This document shows positions 1-16,907 of a DNA stretch of 32,000 bases, piece by piece (the first letter of the stretch is position 1; every line of letters starts with the position of its first letter). The stretch covers positions 4,830,001-4,862,000 of the forward strand of contig NZ_CP021983.2 of NCBI RefSeq assembly GCF_002075285.3, given 5' to 3'. This stretch comes from Halomicronema hongdechloris C2206 (lineage in GTDB: Bacteria > Cyanobacteriota > Cyanobacteriia > Phormidesmidales > Phormidesmidaceae). The notes under the pieces were generated by a model, which saw nothing but the letters and a program-made list of their open reading frames with translations, was not told the DNA's origin and searched no databases. Both the position numbers and the translations under genes were made by a program.

Positions 1-2
1 AC

Positions 3-101
3 CTTTGGCACGCCGGTCGGGCTCGGGCTTCGGCAGCCGGGTTTGAGAAGGGCATCGAGCGTGAGACAGAACCCGTGCTGGCCATGGGCGATATCGACTA
101 A
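3..101 (+). CDS. 3' end of an unidentified gene truncated by the window edge
   Basis: Frame 3 is open from the window edge to TAA at 99-101 (...[22 protein letters not shown]). G+C is high like the core genome, and a terminator-like hairpin follows. With only 32 codons the product cannot be assigned. Confidence 0.3.
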
Positions 102-133
102 GCGCTAGCTTTGGTCCTGAAAATACCTTCGCA

Positions 134-168
134 CAGCCTCGGCCTAAGACGCCGGGGCTGTTTTCTTT
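134..168 (+). terminator. Rho-independent terminator-like hairpin
   Basis: CAGCCTCGGC (134-143) pairs with GCCGGGGCTG (151-160) with one mismatch and a 7-nt loop. It is followed by TTTTCTTT and sits about 30 nt after the TAA at 99-101. Confidence 0.5.
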
Positions 169-268
169 AGGCGGCTGTCAATAACTCCACTAAATCGGCT
201 TTCTTTAACTTTGATATTCCCTCTTGACTCAGTATTCTGGGCAAGGGCAGCATGACCCGGAATTAAAT

Positions 269-276
269 GCGATCGC
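269..276. repeat. HIP1 octamer GCGATCGC (one of at least 15 perfect copies)
   Basis: Perfect copies read by eye start at 269, 3608, 6809, 7273, 9359, 13520, 16250, 16723, 18543, 20620, 23148, 23789, 25218, 26291 and 31522. HIP1 over-representation is a known hallmark of many cyanobacterial genomes. Confidence 0.9.
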
Positions 277-351
277 ACTGTTAGCCGTCGACCAAGACCT
301 TGCTCTCTCAACCGATGGCCCTCCTTACAGCAGTTCTCGATCCAGTAGGCC

Positions 352-3300
352 CTAACTCATATGTAGACGAAAGAAAAGTTCTCTGATCAGATAGTTACGT
401 CTCGTCTCGATGGAGATGTCTGAATCATCAGAATTGCGGTAGCTCAATATTGTGTGTTTTGCCTGCTCTAAATAACCGGCGATATGTCCGTTATAACGCT
501 TCTGTCTACGGATAAGTGCTCTGAGGTGATTTGAGTCTTCTAGAAGTTGAGCACTGTACAGTTTAGCAAGCAGCACCTCAGCGTTATTATTCAGAGATAT
601 ACACTCTTCCGGCTCTGCCGTATAGGCACATAACACCATAGAGGCAGCTGCAAATACTTTTCCTAAATCAGCGATTTCGGTAATCCGACGCGGGTATAAG
701 TCACGAATAGACCTTACTTCTGGAGGAATATCCATAGAAACTTCCTCCTCGGCATCATCACTATTCAGCACTCGACTAATGTAAAATAGGCGTTCCCTAT
801 CTCGCTTGTCTTTTCGAATTCTGCACCCTTCTTCTGCAATTCCCCAAGCCATGTTGAATAAACGAATCGAATGCTGTAATTTGGCTCGCCAATCAATGTC
901 TTCTTCCGGTGACGAAATTTCCTCTTCTGTGGATGAGTTCTCTAAGCTAAACTCCTCAGAGTCGTTACTGCATAACATATATAGACCACGGGCAAAAAAT
1001 AAGTAGCATGCATTGCTTCCAAATAGATATATTGTCCGCTCAGGATGATTGGGAGATAACTTCGGTAAGCGTTCTGGATCAATGGCCAGCAATGACATAT
1101 CTAGTGCTAGCAACCCCTGCAAGTGGCGACTTGATGAATCTTGTTGATTTCCCCGAAATTCAAAGATGGCCGGGATCTTCTGTATAAGGTAGAAGCCAAA
1201 TTTATCCTGATCATCTCTAGGAAGTCCGCTTTTCTCTTTGATCTGATAATAGTATCGCCTACCAGCATCGGCATAGCTAATGAGGGCGTGATTTCTTAGT
1301 GTCCTAGCCCATTTGAGACAGCTCTCAGGCGAGAGATTGCCTAGCTGTCTAGACGATCTAAGGTCTTCTGGCTCAGCATAAGCCGCGATCAAATGCACCC
1401 AACATTGCATGGCGGCATAACAGGCATAGACCTCGCCTTCCCCATTGGCAGCCCCGTAGAGTCTAGCCTTTTCTGTCAGATAGATACGGCCCCAATGAAT
1501 CGAGGCTTCTATCCGGGTTCGGCCGAAGGTATTATCAGTGGGTAGGTGCTCATTATCTAGTGGCACAAGCTGAGGGAAAAATAACATCAGTTTGGCCCTC
1601 AGAGAGGCAATTTTTCCTAATAAAAGGTAGTGTGGGTGGAAAATTCCTTGAGAAACCTCATTAATAGCAACATATTTCCCCAAGCGGATACGAACGTGAG
1701 TGTGAGCCTGATTGAGTACTTCCCATGCTCGCAGAACAAGTCCTTCACGATTGACATTGCTAGGACAACCAGGCGGTAAATAATGATCTGAAGTATCCGC
1801 TGTGTCATACAGATAGTAATACTCTGCCAAGCACAACAAATAGCGAATGATTAATGCTCCTGAAAAAATCTCGAAGTTGTCGAGTTCAGGTCGATTAATG
1901 TTGAGCCCCTGATTGACAAAATCATCTAATACTCTTAAGCGTTTTAAGTGTCTATAGGCTTGACGATAAAGCCCTTCGGCAAGTAACGCTTCTGTAATCG
2001 ATAGGCAAGCATCAAAATAAATATAAGGGTCTGTTCTCTGAAGCAGAACATCACCAGAGTTGGGGGGTAATATTTGCTCATATATAAGCCCAATCATAGC
2101 CAAGGAGGAAAAAGGATAACCTCCCAACCGATTCCAAGCGTCTTTTAATGCAATATGACGTTCAGTACGTTGGCAAAGATGTTGAATATAAGTGTTGGGC
2201 GAAACCCCGGAATTACGAATGGCCTGTAGCCTAGCGTGCAAGGCCGATTGAGCCTGAGAGATAATAAAGTCGAAGCCGCAATAGTCCCCATGGCCTATAG
2301 GATCGGCGAAGGAAAACTCTTCATAGACCCCTAACTTTGTAGAGCTGCCGGATTGTAGTGCCTGAGCTACCGTTTCCTTTTTGCAGAGTTTGACTAAGCT
2401 GTGAGCCCACACAGGAGAAGCGACATCATCTTGAATAATTTTTTGGGTAGATATAATGTCATGGCCAATCGGAAAATAATCTTTTAGACATGGAATATCC
2501 GATAATAGAGCAGAATTAATGACTTTAATCACATGGGACAACGTGCCGCCAACACCAGTGCTGCGGATAGAAAAGTCGATGCGACGGCTATTCTGACTCG
2601 CCAACTTGCGGAAAATAGGTGCGACCGCCGGTGAGTAGTCCTTAGGCACCTTGACGTAGAATTCAGCAATGATTTCGGTGGCTTCTTGGGAGGCTAGTTC
2701 ATAGTCACCTGGCCCCGGCAGTTCTGAGGCCGCATTATGCAACAGGGTTTGGTCTAACTGGCGCAGGACTGGATGTAAGAGAGGAGGGTAGGGACCATCA
2801 AATTGCTGTAACCCCTCGAGTTCTCTGTCAGCAAAGGGTAGAGGACCACATGGCTTGATCGAAATACGTTTCAGATATACCGGAAACTGGTCGGTTAAGC
2901 GCTCATTGGCAACAACAGTTTGAGCAAGCTTGGTGACAAATGCAGGCTGCAAGTACTTACGCGCATAGGCGTTGACCACGATGTCGCTATTGGCGATCGG
3001 GCTTACTTGATTACCACTTCGAGTCAGTAGTCGGCGAATTTCCCGCTGGGCCTTTCGAGTCAAAGTCCTAACAGTACTTTCCTTTCCAGGTGAAATGTCA
3101 TTGTTAGTACCTCTATCCGATCGCTCTGGCAGGTATTCGAGTGTCTGCCTAACTACTCGAGCGACCAAATCATCCACCTTCTCGAGGGTATCTAACGGCT
3201 CATTACTATCTCCAAAGTTTAATCCAACGGCAGCTCTGTAGACCTGAAAGAGCATCTCATGATTTTCTAGATCTCCTGTGGTCTGTAAAATCAGCAGGGC

Positions 3301-3795
3301 CCTTCTCAATAGGGTGAGGCCGTCTGTTGAAGGAAGATTAAGGGCTTTGCGCTCATCAGGGGTAAGGTCAACAAGTTTGTATAGAACTGTCAGGACATCC
3401 TCTGGTGTCAGAGCTCGGTTGTAAGGCTCTTCGTGAGCCTGATAAGCTTCCCGTAGACTCTGATTAAGCGCATTCAGCATCTCGACTACACTACCTGTAG
3501 TGGCCTTGCCGAGTTTGCCGAGTTGTTCTTGCTTAATCTCCCAGGCCACTTCCTCCTGTAACAGCTGGCTGATTATTCTACGAAGATCTCTATTGCCCAA
3601 CCTGTTTGCGATCGCAGATGCATTAGGCTCTCCCCCAGCCTTTTGCTGCATGGCTAAACATGCACACAAGTGATGGAAAAGATAGACTAGACGCTGCTCA
3701 TCAGCGCATTGGCCTAGGGTCATTTCTAGTCGGTAACGAGAGTTTTCCAGAATTCTGAAGGAGATCTTGGATGAAAATGCCAGCATTCCCCCCAA
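352..3795 (-). CDS. Large (1147 aa) hypothetical protein, mostly alpha-helical with a repeat-like C-terminal half; no catalytic motif recognised
   Basis: A single 3.4-kb ORF in a region where AT-richness would otherwise give frequent stops. The start is TTG at 3795 or ATG at 3786. I saw no Walker A (GxxxxGK[ST]), HExxH or DDE motif. An acidic Ser/Glu patch is present (SEEFSLENSSTEEEISSPEEDIDW). The C-terminal half is rich in Y/L/A helix-like segments. Confidence 0.85.
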   Translation of the reverse strand: MGGMLAFSSKISFRILENSRYRLEMTLGQCADEQRLVYLFHHLCACLAMQQKAGGEPNASAIANRLGNRDLRRIISQLLQEEVAWEIKQEQLGKLGKATTGSVVEMLNALNQSLREAYQAHEEPYNRALTPEDVLTVLYKLVDLTPDERKALNLPSTDGLTLLRRALLILQTTGDLENHEMLFQVYRAAVGLNFGDSNEPLDTLEKVDDLVARVVRQTLEYLPERSDRGTNNDISPGKESTVRTLTRKAQREIRRLLTRSGNQVSPIANSDIVVNAYARKYLQPAFVTKLAQTVVANERLTDQFPVYLKRISIKPCGPLPFADRELEGLQQFDGPYPPLLHPVLRQLDQTLLHNAASELPGPGDYELASQEATEIIAEFYVKVPKDYSPAVAPIFRKLASQNSRRIDFSIRSTGVGGTLSHVIKVINSALLSDIPCLKDYFPIGHDIISTQKIIQDDVASPVWAHSLVKLCKKETVAQALQSGSSTKLGVYEEFSFADPIGHGDYCGFDFIISQAQSALHARLQAIRNSGVSPNTYIQHLCQRTERHIALKDAWNRLGGYPFSSLAMIGLIYEQILPPNSGDVLLQRTDPYIYFDACLSITEALLAEGLYRQAYRHLKRLRVLDDFVNQGLNINRPELDNFEIFSGALIIRYLLCLAEYYYLYDTADTSDHYLPPGCPSNVNREGLVLRAWEVLNQAHTHVRIRLGKYVAINEVSQGIFHPHYLLLGKIASLRAKLMLFFPQLVPLDNEHLPTDNTFGRTRIEASIHWGRIYLTEKARLYGAANGEGEVYACYAAMQCWVHLIAAYAEPEDLRSSRQLGNLSPESCLKWARTLRNHALISYADAGRRYYYQIKEKSGLPRDDQDKFGFYLIQKIPAIFEFRGNQQDSSSRHLQGLLALDMSLLAIDPERLPKLSPNHPERTIYLFGSNACYLFFARGLYMLCSNDSEEFSLENSSTEEEISSPEEDIDWRAKLQHSIRLFNMAWGIAEEGCRIRKDKRDRERLFYISRVLNSDDAEEEVSMDIPPEVRSIRDLYPRRITEIADLGKVFAAASMVLCAYTAEPEECISLNNNAEVLLAKLYSAQLLEDSNHLRALIRRQKRYNGHIAGYLEQAKHTILSYRNSDDSDISIETRRNYLIRELFFRLHMS

Positions 3796-3995
3796 AATCC
3801 TGATAAGAGTTTCTCACGTTTGCTGGGACTGGGTGTGCTTTAAATCACAAAAAATCGGAGAGATCTGAAATTTTGAATTATTCGATACAGAAATTTTGGT
3901 AAATTCTAGACCACCACCTTGAGGCGATGCCAGTGGTTGAGCTGCCATACCTTATCTGGCAAGAAAATGTGATTGCCCTAAGAATAAGGTTAGGA

Positions 3996-4031
3996 CTGAA
4001 GAAGCCAGCAATGCCGGGCCAGCTTCTTCAG
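3996..4031. other. 10-bp perfect inverted repeat (hairpin) inside the 667-bp divergent spacer
   Basis: CTGAAGAAGC (3996-4005) and GCTTCTTCAG (4022-4031) are separated by 16 nt. Confidence 0.4.
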
Positions 4032-4462
4032 TTTCCATTACACCGCCGGAGACTATGTCTCAACGGTTCTAAGAGTCTACCCAGAATCAGGGGAGAGTGT
4101 CACTAGTACACAGTAACTTTTGTCATCTCCTCATATGCCTGAGTCAGATCTTCAGAGCGTGATCATATTCTCCGGTGTTCATACTCCACACAGAACTCCA
4201 GGAGAGCAGGTCAATGAAACACCCGTTATGACCACGAGCTGATTGACTAACAGCACTCCAATAGCCAGTGGCTAGACGTCGCGCCTGTGCAGCTAGGTGA
4301 AAAACCTTGTGACCAATCATCTTGGCAAGTTGTTTTCAGAGTCTCCTGGGTTGACTCCAGGCCAGTTAGGCCATCTCTAGCACTCTTGCCTCTGTCATGG
4401 AGTCGCTCAACATCACAGGCTTGTGATGAACATTAGCCCTATTTGATTTTGGAGCCATTGCA

Positions 4463-4882
4463 ATGGTTATCAAACCCTATGACCATTTTGTCTTGAAAAG
4501 CCCTCGACATACCAAAAAAGTAGCAAAGAAACGTCTATTTACTGGGATGCTTTTAGGCTTTATAGTGGCAACTTTAGCCCTCACCAATCCCTACAGTAAG
4601 ACACAATATGTAAAAACGGTGTCTAGACGGGCCCATGACAGCTGGTGTAGTCATCCCGAGGGGGAGTTTTGCGAAATGATTGCCCCGATGACCCGCCCCC
4701 TCTTACAACAACTCCTCTATCACTCTACTCAAGTCCAGAACTATTGGGTTTTCAGCCGATTTCATACCCAGGTGGCGTGCTATGACGTTTTTGGAATTGG
4801 CCTAGGGGGACAGTACATCATTTGGGTGGTACCAGACAGAGATCCTCCCATTTGCCATCCTTTCCATGCCTTTCAACAATAG
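4463..4882 (+). CDS. Small N-terminally membrane-anchored protein, DUF4359-like (assignment from memory)
   Basis: ATG at 4463 has GGAG at 4451-4454 (8-nt spacing). A basic N-terminus is followed by one TM segment (LFTGMLLGFIVATLAL). The C-terminal motif NYWVFSRFHT...FGIGLGGQY resembles the cyanobacterial DUF4359 pattern. Confidence 0.6.
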   Translation: MVIKPYDHFVLKSPRHTKKVAKKRLFTGMLLGFIVATLALTNPYSKTQYVKTVSRRAHDSWCSHPEGEFCEMIAPMTRPLLQQLLYHSTQVQNYWVFSRFHTQVACYDVFGIGLGGQYIIWVVPDRDPPICHPFHAFQQ

Positions 4883-4955
4883 CCACGTCATCGCCATCGG
4901 GTGCAGCTTAAAGACTGATTGTCTCGGTTAATTACACCCTCGTAAACGGAGAACG

Positions 4956-6221
4956 TTGACGGTTATGCAATGTATCTTCAAACCTGCCCATCACTATAAA
5001 AGACTCCAGCTGCTGGGGAGAAAGTTGCAAGACAAGTCGGCGACCTACCTTGCCGTTGATGTCACTACTGACACCGTGGTTGTGCTGAAGCAACTGCAGC
5101 CATCGAGCCTATCCTTACTAGGGCCAGATAGTCCCAGATTAGAGACGTTGTTCAGCCTTAAGCATCCCGGAATCGCTGCCTATAAAGCCATTTGCAGAAA
5201 GGGAGAATATACCTATCTAGTGCGTGCTTATATAGACGCTAGGAGTTTAGCGAGTCGACGGAGCTTTCGCCCTGAGGAGATCAAAGCAGTTGCGATTAGC
5301 TTACTCGAAGTATTGGCAGATTTTCAGGTTCAAATACCAATGATTATTCATGGCAACATCAAACCTGAAAATATCTTCTTTCGACCGTTATCAAATGGCA
5401 AGTTGTCACTTATTTTGACCGACTTTGATCTGGCTGTATCGCACCGATATCCTTCCTCATTTGAACCGGCCAGGGCAGGAACCTTGGGATTCACCCCCCG
5501 TGAGCAAATGCTGGGAGAGCCTAGGCCTGCTTCCGATAACTATGCTGTGGGAGCGGTTTTGTTGAGTTTGCTAAGTGGGACGCCCACCCATCAAATGGAT
5601 ACCTTGACCGATGCCGACAACCCCTATCGGTATCGCAGTCAAGACATTCTATGGCAGCCGCATACAACGATTAGCTCGCAGTTTCTGTCTTGGTTAGATC
5701 GCATGCTAGATCCTAACCCAGACCATCGGTTTCCCGATGCTCGTACTGCGCTGCAGGCATTACTGCCGCTCAGACTGATTGCCAGAGCCCGAGCTAGCCT
5801 GAGTCATTCCCAAATTCGATTAGAGGCCCCGACATTAGGGGCCCAATTACAGGACGTCATTCGGGTCAGTAATTTAAGGCCTGATGCGGTTTTGCAAGGG
5901 CAATGGCACATAACCCCTCGGCCCTATGACCCCTGTGACTGGATTGATATCCATCCGACTTACTTGGCTGGCAATGAAACAACCACGGTGGTATCTGTAG
6001 ATACCCGGCGACTGCAGGCTAAGACAACCTACGTGCGAGAACTTATTCTTCAGTCTAATAGTGAGCAACCCATCATTGCCGTGTCGCTATGCATCACGAC
6101 GGCAGACCTAACACTGCCCTCACGACCGTTGCCACTCTGGCATCTGATTGGACTGCTGGTCAGTAGTACCTTTTTGCCAGTGACTATGGTGATTTTGCTT
6201 CGTGCACTGAACAAGGGATAG
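4956..6221 (+). CDS. Ser/Thr protein-kinase-fold protein with a degenerate catalytic loop (predicted pseudokinase), C-terminal TM anchor
   Basis: Hanks-type subdomains are recognisable: VVVLK (II), LETL..LKHPGI (III), IIHGNIKPENIFF (VIb, HGN instead of HRD, nt 5349-5357), LTDFDLA (VII, DFD instead of DFG, nt 5421-5429), GTLGFTPRE (VIII), SDNYAVGAVLLSLLSG (IX) and DPNPDHRFPDA (XI). The glycine loop is missing (LGRKLQDKSATY). A C-terminal TM segment is present (LWHLIGLLVSSTFLPVTMVILL). The start is TTG at 4956 or, more likely, ATG at 4965 (GGAGA at 4948-4952). Confidence 0.85.
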   Translation: MTVMQCIFKPAHHYKRLQLLGRKLQDKSATYLAVDVTTDTVVVLKQLQPSSLSLLGPDSPRLETLFSLKHPGIAAYKAICRKGEYTYLVRAYIDARSLASRRSFRPEEIKAVAISLLEVLADFQVQIPMIIHGNIKPENIFFRPLSNGKLSLILTDFDLAVSHRYPSSFEPARAGTLGFTPREQMLGEPRPASDNYAVGAVLLSLLSGTPTHQMDTLTDADNPYRYRSQDILWQPHTTISSQFLSWLDRMLDPNPDHRFPDARTALQALLPLRLIARARASLSHSQIRLEAPTLGAQLQDVIRVSNLRPDAVLQGQWHITPRPYDPCDWIDIHPTYLAGNETTTVVSVDTRRLQAKTTYVRELILQSNSEQPIIAVSLCITTADLTLPSRPLPLWHLIGLLVSSTFLPVTMVILLRALNKG

Positions 6222-6269
6222 TCACTGATGACATCTCTACTTTAGTGTTGCTAATCGGGAGATAAGCTA

Positions 6270-6623
6270 ATGCATCAAATTAGAACTTATTTCATAGGAA
6301 TGATGGTCTTGGCAAGTGGCATCATTATCTATAACCTTTGGCACTTTTTGCTGTTTACAGCTGTATTTGGAGTCACGCTATATCTTTGCACTGTAGTTGC
6401 TCATAAGATGAAGCAGAATAGCTTTGGCTACAGTCGTGCCGTATTAGTACCACTAGCGGTCGCATTTACGGGAGTCAGCCTTGGGATAGCTCTGTGCGGC
6501 TCGCCGATGCTCATTCCCGTGGGGGGCTTCCCCCTCTTAAGCTTGATTATCTACCCCAAAGTTCAGCACTGGCGGCTGGTTGCTAACTATAAGCGCAATG
6601 CTCCATATTTGATTCAACCCTAA
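6270..6623 (+). CDS. Small multi-pass membrane protein (117 aa), unknown family
   Basis: ATG at 6270 is preceded by GGGAGA at 6257-6262 (7-nt spacing). It has 3-4 hydrophobic helices and lies in the same orientation directly after the kinase-like gene. Confidence 0.6.
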   Translation: MHQIRTYFIGMMVLASGIIIYNLWHFLLFTAVFGVTLYLCTVVAHKMKQNSFGYSRAVLVPLAVAFTGVSLGIALCGSPMLIPVGGFPLLSLIIYPKVQHWRLVANYKRNAPYLIQP

Positions 6624-6844
6624 GGGGCATAATCCAGATGGTCACTACTCCAACGATGATTCAAGGATGATAAGAAATTTAAGGGCTTGAATCACTGAAC
6701 GTTGCGACTTCCTTCCTAGCTTCTCGTTTCTCTTTCCCCAAGCCCCGCTTGCCCCAACAGGTGTTGCATGGTCATGGTTAAATTGGTGAAATGCTCATTG
6801 GTAAGGGTGCGATCGCACATCAAGTTGCCAGAGTTCCATCGCAG

Positions 6845-7657
6845 TCACCACGACGACCGGTGGTTCCGCCCTCGACCATACTGGCGCTGATAGGCCCAGT
6901 AGAGGGCTTCTAAAAAGGTCTCGGCAGTCATCTCCTGGGGGAGGGTCTCTAGACAGATGCGCTGGCGCAGACTGCGAGCAAGTTCCATACTCAATTGGTT
7001 GCGAGCCGAAGTGACTAGGCCCTGGCGTCGTTGCAGAAACTCCCGCAGCAGGGCAAAGTCATCTGGATCTAGGCGTGCCAGATCCCCCTGTTGCATCAGG
7101 GCGGCGGCGATGGAACGGAGCTTATCAGTGAAGGGAATACCCGGCGGCGTTGTCGGCAGATCTGTTTGCACCACCAGGGTACCGGCTAGCCAGTCGCCCA
7201 GGCGTTTTTCCCGGGCCCCAAACATAATCAAAAAATAGCCCAGGAAGAGGACATCATCCACCGGGCGCAGCAGCGATCGCAACGTGGCTTGAAACAGTCG
7301 GGCCGGTTGGGCATCATCACGAATGACTCGAATATTGACCAGTCGCTTACCAGGAGACCGGCCATACCAAAGGGTCTCGAAGCCGACGAAATAACCGACA
7401 TAGAGGGCGAAGCTCACCACCAGAAAGATGGCGATCAGCCAAAGCTCCAACGTCTCGGTCTCGGTGCCCAGAAACACCCCCATCAGGGCCAGTTGATCGA
7501 TCAGCACCAGATAGATGAGCTGAAGTAGCAACAAGAATATCGCCAGCAGCAGGTAATCGACCAGTAGGGCAATGGCCCGATTGCCGATGCCAGCTAAGAC
7601 AAACTCCAACTCAACGCTTTCGGGGGTGGTGATAGTAACCGACTTGAGCAACTTCAT
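6845..7657 (-). CDS. RDD-family membrane protein
   Basis: N-terminal TM helices are followed by the signature ...GKRLVNIRVIRDDAQP... (RDD motif) and a soluble C-terminal tail. Confidence 0.85.
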   Translation of the reverse strand: MKLLKSVTITTPESVELEFVLAGIGNRAIALLVDYLLLAIFLLLLQLIYLVLIDQLALMGVFLGTETETLELWLIAIFLVVSFALYVGYFVGFETLWYGRSPGKRLVNIRVIRDDAQPARLFQATLRSLLRPVDDVLFLGYFLIMFGAREKRLGDWLAGTLVVQTDLPTTPPGIPFTDKLRSIAAALMQQGDLARLDPDDFALLREFLQRRQGLVTSARNQLSMELARSLRQRICLETLPQEMTAETFLEALYWAYQRQYGRGRNHRSSW

Positions 7658-7662
7658 TGACT

Positions 7663-8562
7663 TCAGCGACCCAGATCTTCAACAACGCCTGCTCTCAAGT
7701 TCTGTCGACCGGTGCGCAAGCCAAAGTCCAACCCCTCCCGGCGGCAGCGCAGATCGTAGTAAAGTACTGCCTTCATCGCCTGCCACAGGGGCGATAGCAG
7801 AATGTTCACCACGATTATGACGCCGATAAACCCAACCAGAGTGGCCAGAACCCAAAGGGCGAAGGGGATTGGATCGATGGGCAGGGTCTGTGCCGATTGG
7901 ATCAGCGAGGGCACCAGCACCAGCAAGGGCAAGCAAGCCAGGATAAACAGTGGCGTACTGATCAAGTAGGCGGCCAAAATCACTCCCTGAATCCGCAGGA
8001 TACTGCCCCGGGTCAGGGTCCAGCTGCGGCCGAAACATTGGGTAGCATCGGTGCTCCGCTCCATGGCCAGGGCAATATCGTAGACGAATAGTCGCGACTG
8101 CACCCAGATCTGTCCCACAAAGATGATCACTTGCGACAAGAACTGCAGCAGCAGGGCGAACACCCCGGCAATGGCACTGTCCCCAAACAGCCCCGCCAAC
8201 CCCATCAATACTGGCAAGAGACTCAGGGAAATTCCGAAGGAGAGGGTCATATTGACCGTCACCAACAGTAGGAAATGCAGAATCCCGGCTCCTAGGAAAC
8301 TCCACAGCCGCGGTTGCAGCACCCGAAAGGTCTCAGCGGGGCGCTCGGGTTGGTCGAGGAGATGTCGAAATCCCAGCCGGGATAGTTGCGCCAAGGTGGT
8401 TAAACTACGGGCCCAGCCATAGATCGGGATCAACCACCACAGAGCCGCCTGTAGGGCCAAGCCCAGATATTGCCGAAAATGAGTCCGGTACAGCTGCAAT
8501 GCCGCATTGATGACATTACCAATGCTAAGGGGACGGCGATAGAGACTGGCCAAGGAGGTCAT
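7663..8562 (-). CDS. Polytopic integral membrane protein (299 aa), family uncertain
   Basis: About 6 hydrophobic helices. It lies 5 nt upstream of the RDD gene on the same strand, so it is a likely operon partner. The alternative-frame ORF at 7679-8305 is judged spurious. Confidence 0.75.
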   Translation of the reverse strand: MTSLASLYRRPLSIGNVINAALQLYRTHFRQYLGLALQAALWWLIPIYGWARSLTTLAQLSRLGFRHLLDQPERPAETFRVLQPRLWSFLGAGILHFLLLVTVNMTLSFGISLSLLPVLMGLAGLFGDSAIAGVFALLLQFLSQVIIFVGQIWVQSRLFVYDIALAMERSTDATQCFGRSWTLTRGSILRIQGVILAAYLISTPLFILACLPLLVLVPSLIQSAQTLPIDPIPFALWVLATLVGFIGVIIVVNILLSPLWQAMKAVLYYDLRCRREGLDFGLRTGRQNLRAGVVEDLGR

Positions 8563-8623: not shown

Positions 8624-9637
8624 TTGGCAAATGTCATGAACATTCGGCGATGGATGGCGCGACGGGAAGGCAGTTGGCAACAATTGGCAGTGCTCTTGCA
8701 CCAGGCGGAACGGCGTGGGCTCAGGTCGCTCAGTGGTGAACAGGTGCGGCAGTTGGCCAGCCTCTACCGCTCGGTATCTGCCGATCTGGCTCGAGCCCGT
8801 AGCGAGGCCGGGGGGGAATCTCTGGTGCAGGAGCTGCAGCAGCTGACGAATCGGGCCTATAGCCAGATCTATCAGGGGTCACGGCGACAGGAGTGGCAAT
8901 CGGTGTGGGCCTTCTACAGCCATGGCTTTCCGGCCGTGGTGCGGCAGAGCTGGGCCTACCTTCTAGGGGCGGCTGGATTGCTGATCGGTGGCGGGCTCAT
9001 CGGCGGTTGGCTGGCTTGGTATGATCCTCGCTTCATGGGCCTGGTGCTGGGTCCCGACTTCGTGGCCCAGGTGAATGACAGCCAGGAACTCTGGACCGTT
9101 TCTATTCTTGGGGTAGAGCCGGTGGCCTCCAGTGCCATCATGGTGAACAACATCGCCGTCTCCCTGCGGGCCATCGTGGGGGGGGTGAGCATGCCCTGGC
9201 CGGGGAACGTCATTCCCATGCCACCGGGGCTGTTTACGATTTATTTGCTGGGCTTCAATGGCGTCATGTTAGGGGCGGTGGGAGCCTTGGTGGCCCAGGC
9301 CAATCTGGCCTATGAGCTCTGGGGATTCGTGTTTCCCCATGGGGCCTTGGAACTGCCTGCGATCGCATTGGCCGGAGCCGCCGGATTACTGTTGGCCCGT
9401 TCCATCCTGATGCCGGTTCCCTATCGTCGCATCGACGCCCTTAAGATCTACGGCCTACAGGCCGCCCAGCTGGTCTACGGTCTGGTGCCGATGCTGGTGA
9501 TCGCTGGCGTGATTGAGGGCTTCATTTCACCGCAACCCTGGATCGCCAACGAGATCAAATATCTGTTAGGCACGGGGATATTTGTTGGGTTTGTGCAGTA
9601 TTGTCGCCGGGCGGGAAGGGGGAAGGGGGAAGAGTGA
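8624..9637 (+). CDS. Stage II sporulation protein M-like (DUF95/SpoIIM family) membrane protein
   Basis: The N-terminal soluble helix bundle carries the typical W..L..LL...E...L..LS.EQ...L..LYR..S.DLA.AR pattern, followed by multiple TM helices. The start is TTG at 8624 or ATG at 8636. It is divergent from the 7663-8562 gene. Confidence 0.8.
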   Translation: MANVMNIRRWMARREGSWQQLAVLLHQAERRGLRSLSGEQVRQLASLYRSVSADLARARSEAGGESLVQELQQLTNRAYSQIYQGSRRQEWQSVWAFYSHGFPAVVRQSWAYLLGAAGLLIGGGLIGGWLAWYDPRFMGLVLGPDFVAQVNDSQELWTVSILGVEPVASSAIMVNNIAVSLRAIVGGVSMPWPGNVIPMPPGLFTIYLLGFNGVMLGAVGALVAQANLAYELWGFVFPHGALELPAIALAGAAGLLLARSILMPVPYRRIDALKIYGLQAAQLVYGLVPMLVIAGVIEGFISPQPWIANEIKYLLGTGIFVGFVQYCRRAGRGKGEE

Positions 9638-9675
9638 CGGGTGACGAGTGACGAGTGACGAGTGACGAGTGACGA
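9634..9675. repeat. Heptanucleotide tandem array (GTGACGA) x6, STRR-like
   Basis: GTGACGG followed by five perfect GTGACGA units. The TGA stop of the SpoIIM-like gene (9635-9637) lies inside unit 1. Confidence 0.95.
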
Positions 9676-9697
9676 GAAGGAAGGCCCCACGGGTTGA

Positions 9698-9729
9698 TGA
9701 GTTTTGAGTTTTGAGTTTTGAGTGAGTGA
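9698..9729. repeat. Second heptanucleotide tandem array (TGAGTTT) x3 plus degenerate TGAGTGAGTGA tail
   Basis: Three perfect units at 9698-9718 are followed by TGAGTGAGTGA. It lies 22 nt after the first array. Confidence 0.9.
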
Positions 9730-9807
9730 ATGTTTTGGCTCCCTGTCAAACGGTGGATGGGCGGGCGAGTAGGCCGATAGCGGATAGAGGGTAAGGGGAC
9801 AGGGTAG

Positions 9808-9826
9808 GGGCGCGGTTGCCGCGCCC
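9808..9826. terminator. GC-rich hairpin in a convergent intergenic region (possible bidirectional terminator, no U-tract)
   Basis: GGGCGCGG (9808-9815), TTG, CCGCGCCC (9819-9826) form a perfect 8-bp stem. It lies between the stop at 9637 (+) and the stop at 9843 (-). Confidence 0.35.
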
Positions 9827-9842
9827 AATGCAGAAAACTTCA

Positions 9843-11771
9843 TCACTCCTGACCTTTTCTTAAACAACGCGACTGATGCGACTGTAAGAATACCTCCGTG
9901 GCTGGAGCGTTCATCGGTCGGGCGAAGAGATATCCTTGCCCACATTCACAGCCCAGTTTCCGCAGATATTCCAACTGCTGAGGGGTTTCGATGCCTTCGG
10001 CGACGACGACTTTATTCAGGTTACGGGCCAGTAACAAGATAGTGCGGATGATTTCTAAGCTTTGTTGATCGTGGCCCAATCGACTGACAAAGGATTTGTC
10101 GATCTTGAGGGCGTCGAAGGGGAAGGTATGCAGATAGCTCAGGGATGAATAGCCAGTGCCGAAATCATCGACGGCTAGACTAATGCGGCGGGTTCGTAAT
10201 CTCCTGAGTACACTTATCATCCGAGGTGCATCTGCCATGGTGGCGGTTTCAGTGATCTCCAACTGCAGTTGCTGAGGATTGAGCTGAGTCTGCTGCAAGA
10301 TCCGATCGATGACGGCAAGCATTGTCATCTGGCGCAGCTGTACCACCGATAGATTGACACTTATGGACAAGGGCCCTTGAACGGCATAGTGTTGCCACTG
10401 CTGCAGCTGTTGGCAGGCTTGCTGCAGTACCCATTCCCCTAGGGGGACAATCAGGCCAGTTTGTTCGGCCAAGGGAATAAACTCGCTTGGTGCAATCAGC
10501 CCCCGTTCGGGATGATGCCAGCGCACCAGGGCCTCAAAGCCAAGCAGATGTTGATTGTCTAACGCCAGAATCGGTTGGTAGTGCAGTTGAAACTGCTGTT
10601 GTTCTAAGGCAGTCCGCAAATCGGCATCTAACTGGAGCTGTTGGGCTGCCTGCAGTTGCATGATACGGTCGAAGGTCTCATGGGTAGTGCTCATGGCCTT
10701 AGCTCGATTCATAGCAGTATCTGCTGCCGTCAATAGCTCCTCGGGGGTCATCCGTACCTGAGAACTGAGGACAATGCCAATCTGACTAGTGACAACAATG
10801 CGCAAGTCTTGGACCGTAAAGGACTGATTTAGGGCCTGATGTAAGGTATTGACAATTTGGTTGGCTTCGTAGTCATCTGCCACGGTTTCCAGCAGGATGG
10901 CAAATTCACTGCCCTCTACCCGGGCTAGCAGGCCGGGGGTGGCCAAGCAGGCTTCCAGCCGCTGGGCGACTTTTACCAGAAGAGTTTCAGCAATCTGACG
11001 CCCGAGGCTGTACTTAATCACTTGGAACTGTTCGATATTTAAATAAAGCAGGGCGAAGGGAGTCGTTCTGGGTTCCTGAAGCAATTGCTGCAGCCGTTGC
11101 AGTAGTAAATTGCTCTTGGGTAGCCCCGTTAAGTCATCGTAAAAGGCCAATCGCTGTAAATCTTCCTTGGCCCGCTGCCGGTCGGTGACATCTTGCACCA
11201 TGGAAAGCAGGCCGATGAATCGGCCCTGGTCGTCTTTTAGGGGAGTATTGGTCCACTCACAGATGATTAGGCGACCATCCTTGGTGATATTTTCGTTTAC
11301 ACTGTGGGCGGCCATATCTCCCTGGGCAATACGCTGGAAAATCTGGCTGACTTGAGGATATGCTGAGGAGGGGATAATCAGCTGGTGGGGCTGATAGCCG
11401 AGTATCTCGGATTTGCTATAGCCAAAGATGGCTTCGGCAGCAGGATTCCAGTCGATGATTTGGAGATCCTGATCGCACAGGACACAACCAATAGGCATGC
11501 GGTCAATCTGTAGCTGCAGCTGTTCCTGGAGTTGTTTGGTGCGCTCAAAGCTATGTTTCAAAGACTGCTGGCTGCGATCGATTAAGCCATATAATGCCAA
11601 GCTAGTTACTAAGACATAGCCCCAGCCCTTAATCGTCTGCAGGCGAGCGGCCATTGTCAGATCATCGGTAATTAGCTCGACTAGGTAATCAGAAAATAGA
11701 ATCCAGAGACTACCTGAGAAGGCATATCCCAAAACAATCAGCAGGACTTGCTGTCTAGAAGAGAGCTGCAT
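9843..11771 (-). CDS. Membrane-anchored PAS-GGDEF(degenerate)-EAL c-di-GMP signalling protein
   Basis: Two N-terminal TM helices and a coiled coil precede a PAS domain (MPIGCVLCD...[11 protein letters not shown]). The GGDEF domain has EGSEF in place of GG[DE]EF (nt 10902-10916). The EAL domain keeps all conserved motifs I know: [42 protein letters not shown]. Confidence 0.9.
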
Positions 11772-11910
11772 CAGTGTAAGAACTCCAAATATGCACGAGC
11801 TCAGTACTCGTAAGACTATCCATTAGCTAAATTCAGAGACTAGTACTATGCTCTACTAGGCAGCGAGCGGCCCATGAAGCTCGCCATCATATCTGAGTGA
11901 ACCTCTATGC

Positions 11911-11954
11911 TAAATTCTAAATTCAACATCTAAATTCAACATCTAAATTCAACA
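11911..11954. repeat. 13-nt tandem repeat TAAATTCAACATC (about 3.4 units)
   Basis: A partial TAAATTC at 11911-11917 is followed by perfect units at 11918-11930 and 11931-11943 and a truncated unit at 11944-11954. It lies 140-183 nt upstream of the GGDEF/EAL start codon (11771, minus strand). Confidence 0.95.
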
Positions 11955-12117
11955 GACAAACGAATCCAAGATGGCTAGGCGAGTTTTGATTGGGTCGATC
12001 TTTAAGTCAATTTAATGGGCAAGGCGTATAGGCAGCAGCGAGGCGCAGCCGTAGTTATTTGGCGGAAAACCCACAAGAATTTACACTCCTTAATATAATG
12101 CAATTGTTTTATATTCC

Positions 12118-12133
12118 GGTGATTTAAATCACC
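12118..12133. repeat. Perfect 16-bp palindrome GGTGATTTAAATCACC
   Basis: Read directly. It lies in an AT-rich 481-bp non-coding stretch next to a second AT palindrome, AATATAA-N10-TTATATT (about 12092-12115). Confidence 0.8.
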
Positions 12134-12252
12134 TCTAACCCATTGGCTGCTCCAGTCGTAGGTACTTGTGATAAGGCGTAGTGATAGTACGCATATACAT
12201 AGCATCCAGGCCAAGGCAGAGGAAATCGCCAGAACGAGCGGTCTCCCAGCTT

Positions 12253-13572
12253 CTATAGACGGCCTTTCGCCTTGATGCGCAGGTATTCATCCACCAGAGC
12301 CTCGCTGATCTGAGGAGCGGGGGCATCCAGCACCAGGGTTCCCCGTTGTCTTAACTGCACGAAGGCGGCCTGGCGTTGGGCCAGTAGATCTAGGGCCACG
12401 GCGCGCCCATAGGCGGCTATCACCTCGGTGGTGAAGGTGTGGGCTTGGCGATCTACCTGGGGGTCTCGCAGGGTGACGCAGAAGGGCAAATAGCGAGGCC
12501 GCAGGCGCATCAGGGCCGAGAGCAACTCCGCCGAGGCGGTGCTATCGACAATATCGGTGAGTAATACCACTAGGGCTCGCCGGGGCTGCTGCTGAACGAC
12601 GGTGGTGACGGCCCCCAAATAGTCGGATTCCTGCAACACGGGTTGCAGCGGCGTCAACTGTTCCAAAAAACGTGTCAGGCGAGACGAGCCCCCTTGGGGG
12701 GGCAGCCAAGTGGTGAGGGTGCGATGGAAGACGCCGATGCCGACCCGATCACCGCGGTGGAGGCCAGCCATGGCCAGGGCGAGGGTAGCGTTGAGGCCCC
12801 AATCGAAGCGGCTCAACCCGCCGACTCGGGAGGTCATCAGGCGACCTTGATCCAGCAGTACGATCAGAGTTTGCTCTCGCTCGGGCTCTAGTACCCGCAC
12901 CAAGGGCTGGTGATGACGAGCGGTGGCCTTCCAGTCGATCAGGCGGGGATCGTCGCCTATCCCGTAGTTCCGCAGCTCCGTAAATTCGGTGCCAACCCCT
13001 AATCGTCGGGCCTGGCGCAGGGTGCCGGTAGACTGCAGGGCCAGGCGCACTGAGAGGGCTCTGAGGCCTAACAAGTCGGGATATACGGCAACGGTAGTGG
13101 CGGCCGTGATGGTCCAATCTACCCAGGCCAGGCCCCAAGGACTGCGCTGGCGTACCTGGAGATCGCCCCAGGCAAATTCTCCCCGCTGGGTGGGATGCAC
13201 GTGGAAGCTAAGGGTTTGGTGCTGCCGAGGAGCTAGGCTGACCCGTAGCGGCATGGCAGTGCCGCCGCAGGTCGCAGGATAGTTGTCGTAGATTTGCATG
13301 TCGCCTCCCCAAGCGCCCGACTGCACCTCTAGGGTGATGATGTTGTCACGACCAATGGACAGGCGAGATAAGGGGGAACGAGTTACCTGTAACCGCTGCG
13401 ACCGGAGGCGGTGACCATCTACAATCATGAGCACCAGGAGCCCACTGTCTACGGCAAGCAGCATCAGGAAACCTAAACCCAGGGACTGACGGCTGGGGAT
13501 GAGGCCACTAACCAAGGGTGCGATCGCACCGACAATCAACAACCACCGATAGAGCCGGGTCGTCGGGATCAT
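12253..13572 (-). CDS. DUF58 family protein (vWA-like partner of MoxR ATPases)
   Basis: N-terminal TM helices are followed by the DUF58 signature ...FTELRNYGIGDDPRLIDWKATARHHQPLVRVLEPEREQTLIVLLDQGRLM.... The ORF track extends to GTG at 13596. ATG at 13572 lies 4 nt after the MoxR stop and avoids a 20-nt overlap. Confidence 0.85.
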   Translation of the reverse strand: MIPTTRLYRWLLIVGAIAPLVSGLIPSRQSLGLGFLMLLAVDSGLLVLMIVDGHRLRSQRLQVTRSPLSRLSIGRDNIITLEVQSGAWGGDMQIYDNYPATCGGTAMPLRVSLAPRQHQTLSFHVHPTQRGEFAWGDLQVRQRSPWGLAWVDWTITAATTVAVYPDLLGLRALSVRLALQSTGTLRQARRLGVGTEFTELRNYGIGDDPRLIDWKATARHHQPLVRVLEPEREQTLIVLLDQGRLMTSRVGGLSRFDWGLNATLALAMAGLHRGDRVGIGVFHRTLTTWLPPQGGSSRLTRFLEQLTPLQPVLQESDYLGAVTTVVQQQPRRALVVLLTDIVDSTASAELLSALMRLRPRYLPFCVTLRDPQVDRQAHTFTTEVIAAYGRAVALDLLAQRQAAFVQLRQRGTLVLDAPAPQISEALVDEYLRIKAKGRL

Positions 13573-13576
13573 CGCC

Positions 13577-14521
13577 TTACCGGGGCACCGGCACACTCTG
13601 CAGTATCCCCTGAATCACGGCTTCCGGGGTGAGGCCATCGAGCTGGGCCTCCGGCCCTAGCAGCAAGCGATGGCGCAACAGGGGTGGGGCCAGCCCCTTG
13701 ACATCATCGGGGGTGACATAGTCCCGCCCCTGCAGCCAGGCATGGGCCTTACTGGCCTGCAACCACAGCACCGCCGAGCGAGGGGATGTGCCCAGGGTCA
13801 GATCCCCATGCTGACGGGTCTTGTGGACTAAGGCCAGCACATAGTCCAACACCGATTCCTGCACCGTCACCTGCTGCACCCCTTGCCGGGCGGTCAAGAT
13901 CTCCTGGGCGGTGGCCAGGGGCTGCACCGACTGCAGCCGCCGGGCCTCGAAGCCAGCTTGGGCGTTTAGCAGCATCTGCTTCTCGGCCTGGGGATCTGGA
14001 TAGGCCACCTGTAACTTGAACAAAAACCGATCTAGCTGAGCCTCGGGGAGGGGATAGGTGCCCTCAAACTCCAGTGGATTCTGGGTGGCAATCACCCAAA
14101 ACAGATCCGATAAGGCATGGCGAGTCCCGTCTAGGGTAACCTGTTGTTCTTCCATGGCCTCCAGCAGGGCCGCCTGGGTCTTGGGCGGCGTGCGATTGAT
14201 CTCATCGGCCAACAGCACCTGGGTAAAGACCGGTCCCCGCTTCAGGGTAAAACGGCGGCTATTGAGGTCAAACACATTGGTGCCAATGATATCTGAGGGC
14301 AAAATGTCCGGCGTCAGCTGGATGCGGCAAAAGTCTGCCTGCATCAGCTGGGCCAGCACCTTGACCACCAGGGTCTTGCCAGTGCCCGGCACCCCTTCCA
14401 AAATCACGTGTCCCCCGGCCAACAAGGCCACCAGCAAGTGCTCCACCAAGGTGCCTTGGCCCACCACCACCCGGCTGAGCGCCTGGCCAACGCGATGTAA
14501 CGAAGTGTGGGACTCAGTCAT
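13577..14521 (-). CDS. moxR: MoxR-family AAA+ ATPase
   Basis: Walker A is GVPGTGKT and Walker B is LLADEINR, and the typical MoxR stretch [18 protein letters not shown] is present. At 314 aa the length fits the family. Confidence 0.93.
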
Positions 14522-15612
14522 AGATCACGGGAATGCAGGACATGGAGACGACGTAACCACTCTCGCAGAGTCATTGTATTCAAGCTAGTGGGCGGAGTCA
14601 GGGGATGTAGCTCGGTTGCCGCGCCCCCCGTGGCCTGATGCCAGGCCGTGGCCAGGGTAGCATCATCCACCGGCCCTGTTCCTAGGCCTAAGCGCTGCTG
14701 CAACTGCTGCCGCTCCGCCGCTGCTAGGGCATCGACCACGAACTGATGGCTATTGGCCTTGTATAGCACTTCCGCCAGGGCCTGAATATAGGCGGTGCTG
14801 TTATCCACCACTGGGGGATGGATTGCCTGGGGAGCCCCGAGATACCGGTTCTGGGCCCACCCGATCAGTAGGCAAATCACTACTATTTGGCCGCATACCA
14901 ACACCAGCGGGGTCTGGGCTAGGTAGGTGAGCCAGCTACTGGCCCCTGCTGTGGCCGAGGCTTCAGCCTCCCGGTAACCATGGAGATACTCATCTACCCA
15001 GATCGGTCCCCCGGCTTGGGTGACCAGGTCGGCCAGCCAGGGAAAGTTGCCCGCTGCCTGCTGGTAAGCATTGGCGGCCAAATGGGGTGTCACCGCTAGA
15101 ATCAGTTGACCGGCGGACTGGGGCTGTCGCCAGACAATCAGACCCTGATCGTCCTGCAGTAAGGGGGTCCCTTTCTCGGCGGCTTGCCGCCGTCGGGTGG
15201 CGATGGTGACGGGGCCCCGATCACTGGGGATCTGGGTCTCAAAGGGGGCCGCCGTGACCGGGTAGCTCAAGCCCAACACGACCAGGGTGTTGCCTCGGCG
15301 CAGCCAATCGTCCAACCAGGGCCGCTGGGCCCAACTGCCCTCGACCGACCAGAAAGTTGGATGAATCTGCACCAGGGTGGCTGGTTCTTGGTCGCGGCGC
15401 TGTTTCAGTAGATCAGCGACAGGCTGCTGCCAACGCTGAATCGCGACCCCTTGTGCTTCCATGTAGTCATACCAAGCGGCATAGCCATCGGGATTGCGAT
15501 TCCAGGTGGAGCCACTGGCCAGGGAGAAGGCACTGGGGGTCGATAGGGACAGCAGACCCAGGAGCAATAGCAGACCCATCCCGAATAGCAACCAGAGCCG
15601 TCGTTGCCTCAT
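14518..15612 (-). CDS. DUF4350-like membrane-anchored protein
   Basis: An N-terminal signal/TM segment is followed by the [16 protein letters not shown] motif typical of DUF4350, with a late TM helix. The stop overlaps the moxR ATG (ATGA at 14518-14521). Confidence 0.75.
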
Positions 15613-16190
15613 GGCCGCATGATCTCCTGAAAGGCGCGGCGACAGCGCTCGTAGGTGTCGGCCGCGGCGGGATGGTTGCCAAACTCCAGGCGCTCGTGGG
15701 TGCGAATTAAGAGTTGATAGGGGCGAGGCTGGGCCAGTTGGCTCACTTGGTCGAGGTAGTCGCCGTCGGTGTAACTGGGATTGGCGGGCAGGTGCTGCTG
15801 TTGGTGCAGATATTGCAGGGCAGCTAGATAGAGAATATGGCAGGCTTGTCGGTAGTCACCCTGTTGGGCCCAGTGCTGGGCCTGCTGCCATCTCACCGGG
15901 GAAGAGGCTGCCTGGGAGGTCGATACCGAGGTCGGCCGCCGCCGTTGCCACTGGCCCGGCTGGTGCCACCAATTGGCCCCCATCCTATAGAGCATCCAGG
16001 CCAACCATAGCCCTAGTCCGGCCAAGATTAGCCCCAGCAGCACTTGTCTCAGGGGCTCCGGCAACGTCCACTGGGGGGAATCAGCGGGCTGCCATTGCCA
16101 GCGAGACCAAAAAAATTCCCAGGCTTCCCCGAGTCGTTGCAGCAGGAGCCGCAGTTGCCAGCCCAGGTTGCTGGTTGCATAAGCATCCAT
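15609..16190 (-). CDS. DUF4129-like protein
   Basis: A TM segment is followed by the C-terminal motif WAQQGDYRQACHILYLAALQYL...PSYTDGDYL, characteristic of DUF4129. The stop overlaps the DUF4350 ATG (ATGA at 15609-15612). Confidence 0.75.
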   Translation of the reverse strand: MDAYATSNLGWQLRLLLQRLGEAWEFFWSRWQWQPADSPQWTLPEPLRQVLLGLILAGLGLWLAWMLYRMGANWWHQPGQWQRRRPTSVSTSQAASSPVRWQQAQHWAQQGDYRQACHILYLAALQYLHQQQHLPANPSYTDGDYLDQVSQLAQPRPYQLLIRTHERLEFGNHPAAADTYERCRRAFQEIMRP

Positions 16191-16291
16191 GGCATGATGG
16201 TGACCTGCGGCTCAATTATAGGCTCAATTCTGGGTTCCTTGGCACGGTTGCGATCGCACCGGCGTCTCTACCCTTCTGCAGCGACCTACCT

Positions 16292-16907
16292 ATGGCAAAT
16301 CATGCCTGCATCCTGGTCACGGGGCCCACCCGCTCAGGCAAGAGTGAGTGGGCCGAACAGCTGGCGCTCCAGTCGGCGCGACCGGTGATTTATGTGGCCA
16401 CAGCCCAACGGGATCCGCAGGATCTAGCGTGGCAGCAACGCATCGATCGGCATCGGCAGCGGCGTCCATCCCATTGGCAGACCCCGAGAGGTCCCTACCG
16501 ACTTGGCTGCCACCCTGCTCACCATTCCAGCCGACGCTTGTGTGCTAGTCGATTCCCTGGGCACCTGGCTGACGAATCTAGTAGACCTGCCCGAGGCCGA
16601 GTGGCGGCAACGGCAAACCCAGTTCTTGCAGAGTCTGGCCCAGGCTACCTGTCAGGTGATTCTGGTGGCAGAAGAGACGGGCTGGGGGGTGGTGCCGGCC
16701 TATCCCCTGGGGCGCACCTTTTGCGATCGCATGGGGCGGCTCACCCGGCAGGTGGGGCAATTAGCCGATCCGGTTTATCTGGTGGTGGCCGGCCCATGCC
16801 ATCGATCTGCGCACCTGGGGGCAAACCGTCCCCCACGGGTGGCCGATAATCTTAAGCTCAGCAAACATCTGACTGCCGCTAGAACCAGTCAGGCGCAACA
16901 GCGTTAG
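16292..16907 (+). pseudogene. cobU: Adenosylcobinamide kinase / adenosylcobinamide-phosphate guanylyltransferase (CobU/CobP type), frameshifted as assembled
   Basis: The N-terminal half runs from ATG 16292 (MANHACILVTGPTRSGKSEWAE...VIYVATAQ...RIDRHRQRRPSHWQT). The C-terminal half is in another frame (..VPTDLAATLLTIPADACVLVDSLGTWLTNL...VILVAEETGWGVVPAYPLGRTFCDRMGRLTRQVGQLADPVYLVVAG). The frames join if one C is removed from CCCC at 16482-16485, giving WQTREVPTDL (compare Salmonella CobU ...HWRTAECW...). The 3' end is uncertain: the third frame after VVAG reads HAIDLRTW..., which looks more CobU-like than the tail ending at 16907 and hints at a second shift near 16788-16796. Confidence 0.8.

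Follow-up and report, generated by a model that had tools for sequence, protein, structure and literature searches.

What is the AT-rich block at the left end of this stretch of the Halomicronema hongdechloris C2206 genome: foreign DNA, or resident DNA that has grown poor in G+C? The window, by which we mean the whole 32,000-nucleotide stretch analysed here, carries at positions 102–6844 four genes (A, B, C and D) flanked by two GC-rich units. An earlier note, made from the sequence alone, read this block as an old acquisition from a lower-G+C donor, or else as a fast-evolving accessory locus. On balance we lean towards the block being a long-resident, lineage-restricted accessory module of four genes that has relaxed towards AT at synonymous sites, and not a recent foreign insertion. 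The evidence comes from the composition of the block, the family to which gene A belongs, a conserved RNA leader upstream of gene A, and the arrangement of the four genes in relatives.

Composition was computed with the rest of the window, not the genome, as the reference. The G+C content is 47.0% in 102–6844, compared with 57.8% in 6845–32000 and ∼60.6% in the core stretch at 12300–26500. In 200-bp windows both edges are sharp, with G+C falling from 0.58 to 0.47 at ∼200 and rising from 0.45 to 0.57 at ∼6800–6850. The G+C at third codon positions (GC3) of the four block genes is 0.434 (gene A), 0.475, 0.504 and 0.513, the bottom four values among the 26 open reading frames (ORFs) of the window, where the next-lowest ORF has 0.518 and core genes have 0.65–0.77. 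The G+C drop that the earlier note had estimated by eye is thus borne out by the computed profile. Once base composition is normalised out, the deviation in tetranucleotide usage is no more than mild: block and rest correlate with r = 0.76, the lowest of 13 windows, with the 12 other windows of the same size at 0.79–0.87.

That no real feature underlies this difference, and that it is ordinary scatter from gene to gene, is the least credible of the explanations we weighed. Intermediate GC3 values do occur elsewhere in the window (0.58 in a GGDEF-EAL gene, 0.52–0.54 in the ORFs of an IS630 element), and the published genome G+C of 54.6% (PMC6416890) implies many regions below 60%. The lowest four of 26 ORFs are, however, adjacent here (the probability that a given four rank bottom is 1/14950), and the 11-point drop begins and ends abruptly, at borders that are also those of genes and of synteny. 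The features of the block and its immediate flanks, in window coordinates, are as follows.

1–101, plus strand: 3′ end of psbC (photosystem II CP43; psbC2, XM38_045920), the GC-rich left flank, G+C 0.634
133–161, plus strand: terminator-like hairpin and T-run after psbC, 11-bp stem with 8 G-C pairs, tail TTTCTTT
352–3795, minus strand: gene A, longest ORF 1147 aa; the NCBI start is the ATG at 3786, giving 1144 aa (XM38_045930)
3887–3916, minus strand: third hairpin (UGG...CCA), then a U-rich tract; the UGG/CCA columns are invariant in 23 sequences
3976–4074, minus strand: two-hairpin RNA motif in the presumed 5′ leader of gene A, P1 at ∼4067–4042 and P2 at ∼4031–3996
4074–4103, minus strand: sigma-70-like promoter from a consensus scan, −35 GTGACA, 18 nt, −10 TAGACT
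4463–4882, plus strand: gene B, 139 aa, divergent from gene A, with one N-terminal transmembrane segment and a borderline DUF4359 match
4956–6221, plus strand: gene C, 421 aa, with a kinase fold (Pkinase, E = 4e-18), a C-terminal domain and a C-terminal hydrophobic (transmembrane-like) segment
6270–6623, plus strand: gene D, encoding a membrane protein of 117 aa (four hydrophobic segments); the module ends with this gene
6845–7657, minus strand: RDD-family gene (Pfam RDD), the GC-rich right flank

The boundaries given in the earlier note, a terminator on the left (133–161) and the RDD gene on the right (6845–7657), were both confirmed, and so was its report that integrase, tRNA and flanking direct repeats are absent. 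Scans with Pfam, NCBIfam and PADLOC found no mobility genes among the four block proteins, and the only transposase genes of the window lie at 26.7–27.9 kb. The sole tRNA of the window (26471–26545) is outside the block. A search of 1–7800 for repeats bracketing the block returned just short two-copy matches; the one pair present at both edges (arms 268–283 and 6802–6817) is two copies of the HIP1 element (GCGATCGC). A check for a phage origin of the block gave no phage match. All 15 HIP1 copies in the window lie where the earlier note had listed them, but its description of the block as HIP1-poor did not survive, as 3 copies lie in 102–6844, where 3.16 would be expected (binomial P = 0.61); the interior without the two edge copies holds 1 against ∼3 expected (P = 0.16–0.18). 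Relative to the expectation from local composition, HIP1 is enriched 38–46-fold in the block and 18–23-fold in the rest of the window, so that the enrichment of the block is native-like, equal to or above that of the rest.

The earlier note had described the four genes correctly, except that it called the 1147-aa protein of gene A an orphan. Its ORF matches XM38_045930 of H. hongdechloris C2206, on a contig of 5,577,845 bp, at 100% identity. Gene A has 97 homologs (37–76% identity, nearly all full length) and belongs to a family that counts about 100 members among Nodosilinea, Phormidesmis and Leptolyngbya-type cyanobacteria, with 53 loci in species-representative genomes. The named homologs come from Nodosilinea, Tildeniella, Leptolyngbya, Phormidesmis, Trichocoleus and Elainellaceae, and all hits are cyanobacteria of related groups. 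In a neighbour-joining tree of gene A, judged against taxon names and not against a core-genome tree, the clades agree with the names of the named loci (a Nodosilinea clade and a Phormidesmis clade). The window falls in a Halomicronema-like clade together with the loci that we label L054, L057, L001 and L146. The identity of gene A and that of the core RDD protein run in parallel: 60 and 61% in Co-bin13, 56 and 56% in N. nodulosa, and 48 and 54% in Phormidesmis LEGE 11477.

Low GC3 turned out to be a trait of the gene A family. In 28 of 35 loci, gene A has a lower GC3 than the median flanking ORF (mean difference −0.076, Wilcoxon P = 4e-6), and gene A is the lowest-GC3 ORF of its locus in 16 of the 35. 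Control ORFs of at least 700 aa from the same loci have a mean GC3 difference of +0.026. The trait varies within clades: among Nodosilinea, gene A GC3 ranges from 0.49 (LEGE 07088) to 0.79 (N. nodulosa) at 78% protein identity, with the flanks at ∼0.70 in both. With its deficit of −0.22, H. hongdechloris thus stands at the strong end of something seen repeatedly in the family. In GC-rich bacteria, core genes are as a rule richer in G+C than accessory or weakly expressed ones, a pattern discussed in terms of core and accessory composition and of GC-biased gene conversion. Two readings suit the low GC3 of the family: an equilibrium specific to the gene, set by low expression or scarce gene conversion, and exchange that recurs within clades.

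A second trait of the family lies in the 667-bp spacer between genes A and B, which is better conserved between the window and L054 (∼84% nucleotide identity) than are the coding parts. Searched with a profile of the spacer, 27 distinct loci show this element upstream of gene A. The element contains two hairpins, P1 (8 bp) and P2 (14 bp), and just upstream of them the sigma-70-like promoter, the hexamers of which sit in conserved columns of a 23-sequence alignment. A covariance model of the motif (R1) scores 59.7 bits at the window copy and gives one same-strand match per locus, usually 230–380 nt upstream of gene A, in ∼40 of 56 sources (952 kb); the other R1 matches are only antisense, mostly partial, and at the same spot. 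Across 34 sequences, 87.7% of the cells are paired and 20 of the 22 pairs show compensatory double changes. Compensatory cells number 96, compared with 26 ± 6 in shuffles (none of 500 as high), and slid controls pair at 33–53%. The R1 alignment was fitted to the model, which favours structure; the MAFFT seed alignment already contained 15 of 22 compensated pairs. The frequent G-U pairs in the motif are compatible only with the gene A strand. The conserved promoter and covarying leader in ∼40 loci argue for long shared ancestry and for regulated expression.

A search of Rfam 15 (4227 families) gave no match at E ≤ 5 on window positions 3780–4470, and noise only on positions 9450–10050 of a second locus (L008). 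The motif is absent from L146. Some 60 nt after the motif, at a fixed offset, a hairpin with a T-run was detected in ∼16 of 33 loci; the window copy did not pass by the same measure. From its sequence, the third hairpin looks terminator-like in Nodosilinea-type relatives and weak in the window. Judged on covariation, the leader appears to possess the conserved structured domain that characterises riboswitch and attenuation leaders, and the motif is a candidate cis-regulatory leader or small RNA (sRNA), previously undescribed. More speculatively, we suggest that the promoter, the two hairpins and the downstream hairpin may form a new cis-regulatory RNA, either riboswitch-like or an attenuator responsive to a protein or sRNA, that would hold gene A, and in Halomicronema also the pseudokinase (gene C) and its membrane partners, off barring a specific signal; such tight control would also explain the AT-rich synonymous sites of the family in most of its host genomes. 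We hold this proposal with well below even confidence.

These observations bear directly on the old acquisition proposed in the earlier note. A distant donor with a lower G+C, whether or not a cyanobacterium, would account for the deviation in G+C and GC3, the mild tetranucleotide deviation and the poorly characterised genes. The close homologs of gene A are nevertheless all cyanobacterial, with names that group with Halomicronema (thin filamentous forms), and their identity parallels that of RDD; orthologs of genes B, C and D are confined to the same clade, the leader RNA recurs across the gene A family, and HIP1 is enriched in the block. The recurrent low GC3 of the family, taken together with this native-like enrichment, argues against such a donor, and an old acquisition would be expected to have drifted to host composition already. 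With a family spread over ∼100 related cyanobacteria and a tree that matches taxon names, we consider acquisition from a distant donor very improbable.

We then compared the block with the corresponding loci of relatives. The order and orientation of the module, with D, C and B divergent from A, are identical in L054 and L141 (gene A 76% identical; L141 lies within a 499-kb contig) and in L057 (gene A 70%). DNA homology between the window and L054 is confined to 372–6622, from the stop codon of gene A to that of gene D. Nucleotide identity is 66–80% in the genes (74–80% for A to C) and ∼84% in the A–B spacer, with protein identities of 76, 77, 73 and 57% for A, B, C and D, respectively. Orthologs of B, C and D are restricted to the Halomicronema-like clade, in which L146 (gene A 65%) is without them. 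Those of gene B were found only in L054, L057, L001 and L013, each time divergent from gene A (the L001 and L013 contigs end at gene B, next to A), and those of gene D only beside gene C, in L054 and L057. The A-B-C-D arrangement is common to the Halomicronema-like clade, while gene A and its leader are shared more widely. The module is AT-richer than its surroundings in the window, L054 and L057, with GC3 values of 0.43–0.51, 0.56–0.70 and 0.33–0.48, respectively.

The outer neighbours of the module differ in every genome compared. In L054 it lies between DUF4058, two Uma2 genes and an nSTAND NTPase on one side and DUF1295, aroC and ycf66 on the other; in L057, between type I restriction-modification and BrnT/CopG genes on one side and Uma2, ParA and DUF1016 on the other. 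The fast-evolving accessory locus that the earlier note had offered as its second choice fits a module of this kind, which is clade-restricted, 57–77% identical in protein and set among varying neighbours.

In the window, the block occupies a synteny breakpoint: a GC-rich core unit lies on either side of it, with the psbC terminator at the left border and the last gene of the RDD cluster at the right. On the left, the edge of the low-GC segment falls at the terminator-like hairpin (133–161). The C-terminal 32 aa of the gene ending at 101 match CP43 fragments at 81–88% identity, and XM38_045920 and XM38_045910 have been identified as psbC2 and psbD3 (PMC6416890; supplementary file 2 for psbC2). 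The left neighbour is thus the psbD3-psbC2 operon of the photosystem II core, directly 3′ of which the low-GC block begins. A search for psbC in relatives recovered only 1-kb contigs from unrelated samples.

On the right, RDD is the last gene of a cluster comprising DUF4129, DUF4350, MoxR, DUF58, SpoIIM, a 299-aa membrane protein and RDD. We surveyed the RDD side in 80 metagenome loci and 1861 homologs. The MoxR-DUF58-SpoIIM-RDD cluster is kept in ∼40 metagenome loci and the gene downstream of RDD varies, the largest group that shares the same downstream neighbour being 7 of 44 loci. The nearest relative of this flank (L139/L140) is 90% identical in RDD, 79% in the 299-aa protein and 90% in SpoIIM, and 81% identical in nucleotides; among RDD homologs, identity drops from 90% straight to 61%. 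Homology between the window and L139/L140 ends at the RDD stop codon, and both contigs break 95–140 bp further on. These contig ends (L139 2799–2893 and L140 2264–2403), with sequence ending ...GGCCCCCTAGCCCCCAAACTTGGGGG, look like a dispersed repeat that stopped assembly. If L054 and L139 are taken as one organism, as the sample series suggests, the module is somewhat more diverged than the flank in protein (57–77 versus 79–90%) and similar in DNA.

The pattern at these flanks raises another explanation, in which A-B-C-D is a horizontally transferred cassette with no mobility genes of its own. Related filamentous cyanobacteria would exchange it through transformation or conjugation and subsequent recombination, and the H. 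hongdechloris copy would have arrived at the psbC/RDD junction fairly recently from a lower-G+C relative, its composition not yet adjusted. In favour of a cassette, homology covers the block and nothing beyond it, each of the three genomes has different flanks, and the neighbours are of variable or defence type (Uma2, HsdM/HsdS, BrnT/CopG, nSTAND and ParA). The GC3 of the module differs by 0.1–0.2 among relatives while that of the core flank is similar (0.67–0.73 in the window, 0.64–0.67 in the nearest relative), homology to the nearest relative goes no further than the RDD stop codon, and gene A homologs are found at 64–76% identity, whereas those of RDD fall from 90 to 61%. The gene A family also has a member on a conjugative plasmid beside IS21 and Uma2. 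Set against this are the lack of repeats, integrase or tRNA, the native-like HIP1 enrichment and the agreement of the gene A clades with taxon names. Further, the divergence of the module (74–80% nucleotide identity for A to C) is near the 81% of the core flank, as under co-inheritance, and a GC3 deficit in 28 of 35 loci would require many transfers, nearly all from lower-GC donors. We regard exchange of this kind as a serious but less probable alternative, and favour long residence over it.

Several points nonetheless weigh against long residence. The weak expression of the module, on which that explanation draws, is something we infer. The placement of the module beside different neighbours in each genome, among Uma2, type I restriction-modification, toxin-antitoxin and nSTAND genes, fits a mobile cassette too, and the strong differences in GC3 between orthologous modules (0.33–0.48, 0.43–0.51 and 0.56–0.70) would also be explained by transfer between hosts of differing G+C. 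Carriage of the gene A family by plasmids is possible, given the distant homolog on a conjugative plasmid. Finally, the 35 loci of the GC3 comparison are phylogenetically non-independent, which makes the Wilcoxon P optimistic.

The plasmid-borne homolog (L148; NC_019690.1 204515–207946) is 34% identical to gene A. Pseudanabaena sp. PCC 7367 carries it on a conjugative plasmid of 329 kb, with an IS21 element and a gene for a Uma2 endonuclease as its neighbours. In most distant relatives (L003–L051), gene A is divergently paired with an ORF of ∼70 aa that lies ∼400–480 bp upstream on the opposite strand and encodes a zinc-ribbon miniprotein (HPHHLECPxCG...CLxCxW, then a transmembrane helix); B-C-D hold this position in the Halomicronema-like clade. 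No such partner was present among ORFs of at least 40 aa in the A–B spacer of the window.

The proteins themselves offer some indication of what the module might do. Gene A gave no Pfam, NCBIfam or PADLOC domain match, and its PDB sequence profile search was empty. Its AlphaFold2 model (predicted local distance difference test score, pLDDT, 72.7; predicted template modelling score, pTM, 0.76) is mostly α-helical and solenoid-like; a search for PDB neighbours of the model returned none that was significant, only generic HEAT/TPR-like matches with template modelling scores below 0.2. As modelled, gene A is a mostly α-helical, solenoid-like protein of a conserved cyanobacterial family. Gene B passes the DUF4359 profile (PF14271) at the borderline, with 28.0 bits against a gathering cut-off of 27 over profile positions 2–81 of 103, which sustains, narrowly, the DUF4359-like label that it had been given.

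Gene C scores 66 bits against PF00069 (cut-off 31.7), which identifies a kinase fold. Its catalytic motifs are degenerate, with HGN for HRD, DFD for DFG and the glycine loop missing, whereas the VAIK lysine is present. Two orthologs carry the same motif losses, with DFG replaced by DFD, DFA or DFK across the set, and the paralogs, which form ∼160 clusters at 30–39% identity and share the same C-terminal domain, have HRD and DFG intact. Gene C is accordingly a likely pseudokinase, probably catalytically dead, in keeping with the call made in the earlier note. We also considered an anti-phage defence role, prompted by the Uma2, restriction-modification and toxin-antitoxin neighbours, and rejected it, as only generic kinase matches were obtained: the kinase domain of gene C matched the PADLOC kinase models PD-T4-6, mad6 and MkoA, with no PADLOC matches for A, B or D and no system-specific component.

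Returning to the long-resident module, we propose that it would consist of gene A, encoding a helical-repeat protein of ∼1,100 aa with its own conserved promoter and structured RNA leader, and a divergent trio of gene B (DUF4359-like), gene C (a putative membrane-anchored pseudokinase) and gene D (a small membrane protein). This anatomy suggests a membrane-associated complex in which a soluble A would act with B, C and D as membrane partners; in more distant relatives, the zinc-ribbon/transmembrane miniprotein may be the partner of A. Low G+C would be a long-term property of the module genes, which are probably expressed rarely or under tight control. Rare expression would weaken selection or biased gene conversion at synonymous sites, allowing AT-biased mutation to lower GC3, while the same forces would hold the GC3 of core genes near 0.7. 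The differing neighbours would then reflect ordinary rearrangement in variable surroundings, where Uma2, restriction-modification and toxin-antitoxin genes abound.

The window has other regions of lowered G+C. Between SpoIIM and DUF58 lie the PAS-GGDEF-EAL gene, with its GC3 of 0.58, and an AT-rich spacer (∼41% G+C, 11.8–12.2 kb). SpoIIM and DUF58 are directly adjacent in many relatives (e.g. L059, L067 and L133), and 9843–12252 looks like a second, smaller lower-GC insertion into a conserved cluster. The IS630-type transposase is split into a helix-turn-helix (HTH) part at 27344–27856 and a DDE_3 part at 26712–27338, beside tRNA-Arg(TCT) at 26471–26545. The stretch at 26.5–29 kb has ∼51.6% G+C, and a further HTH transposase-like ORF lies at 29821–30903.

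As a compositional island the locus is ordinary, and it shows that foreign DNA need not be the reason when G+C falls sharply in a cyanobacterial genome. The parts most worth attention are the leader RNA motif and the family-wide GC3 deficit. A family of ∼100 members that carries no domain annotation is a test case for gene-specific GC3, whether set by expression, gene conversion or within-clade exchange, and a new covarying RNA motif provides an experimental handle on the regulation and function of that family.

Compared with classical genomic islands, the block shares the sharp drop in G+C and GC3, the accessory genes, the synteny breakpoint and, in relatives, the variable-region neighbours. 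It differs from them in having no integrase or transposase, tRNA target or direct repeats, in its native-like HIP1, and in a main gene that is widely conserved, with a tree matching taxon names and a conserved leader RNA. The block therefore has the composition of an acquired island, but neither the mobility genes, nor the tRNA or repeats, nor the conflicting phylogeny of one.

The block likewise resembles the general case of AT-richer accessory genes, since its genes are accessory and have lower GC3 than their core neighbours, as does the family in 28 of 35 loci. Unlike that general rule, the deficit tracks one gene family through many genomes and can be as large as −0.2 in GC3; a few lineages, N. 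nodulosa among them, lack it or show the opposite. In domain order, gene C is like the Hanks-type Ser/Thr kinases with a C-terminal extension and membrane anchor, but the Hanks-type paralogs (30–39% identity) keep HRD and DFG, whereas gene C and its orthologs are degenerate and without the glycine loop. Lastly, the leader differs from structured leaders of the Rfam type in matching none of the 4227 families, in its weak terminator-like hairpin here and in being missing from L146, but shares with them a conserved promoter, two covarying hairpins, G-U pairs compatible with the sense strand alone, a constant location ahead of one gene family and, in many relatives, a hairpin and U-run further down.

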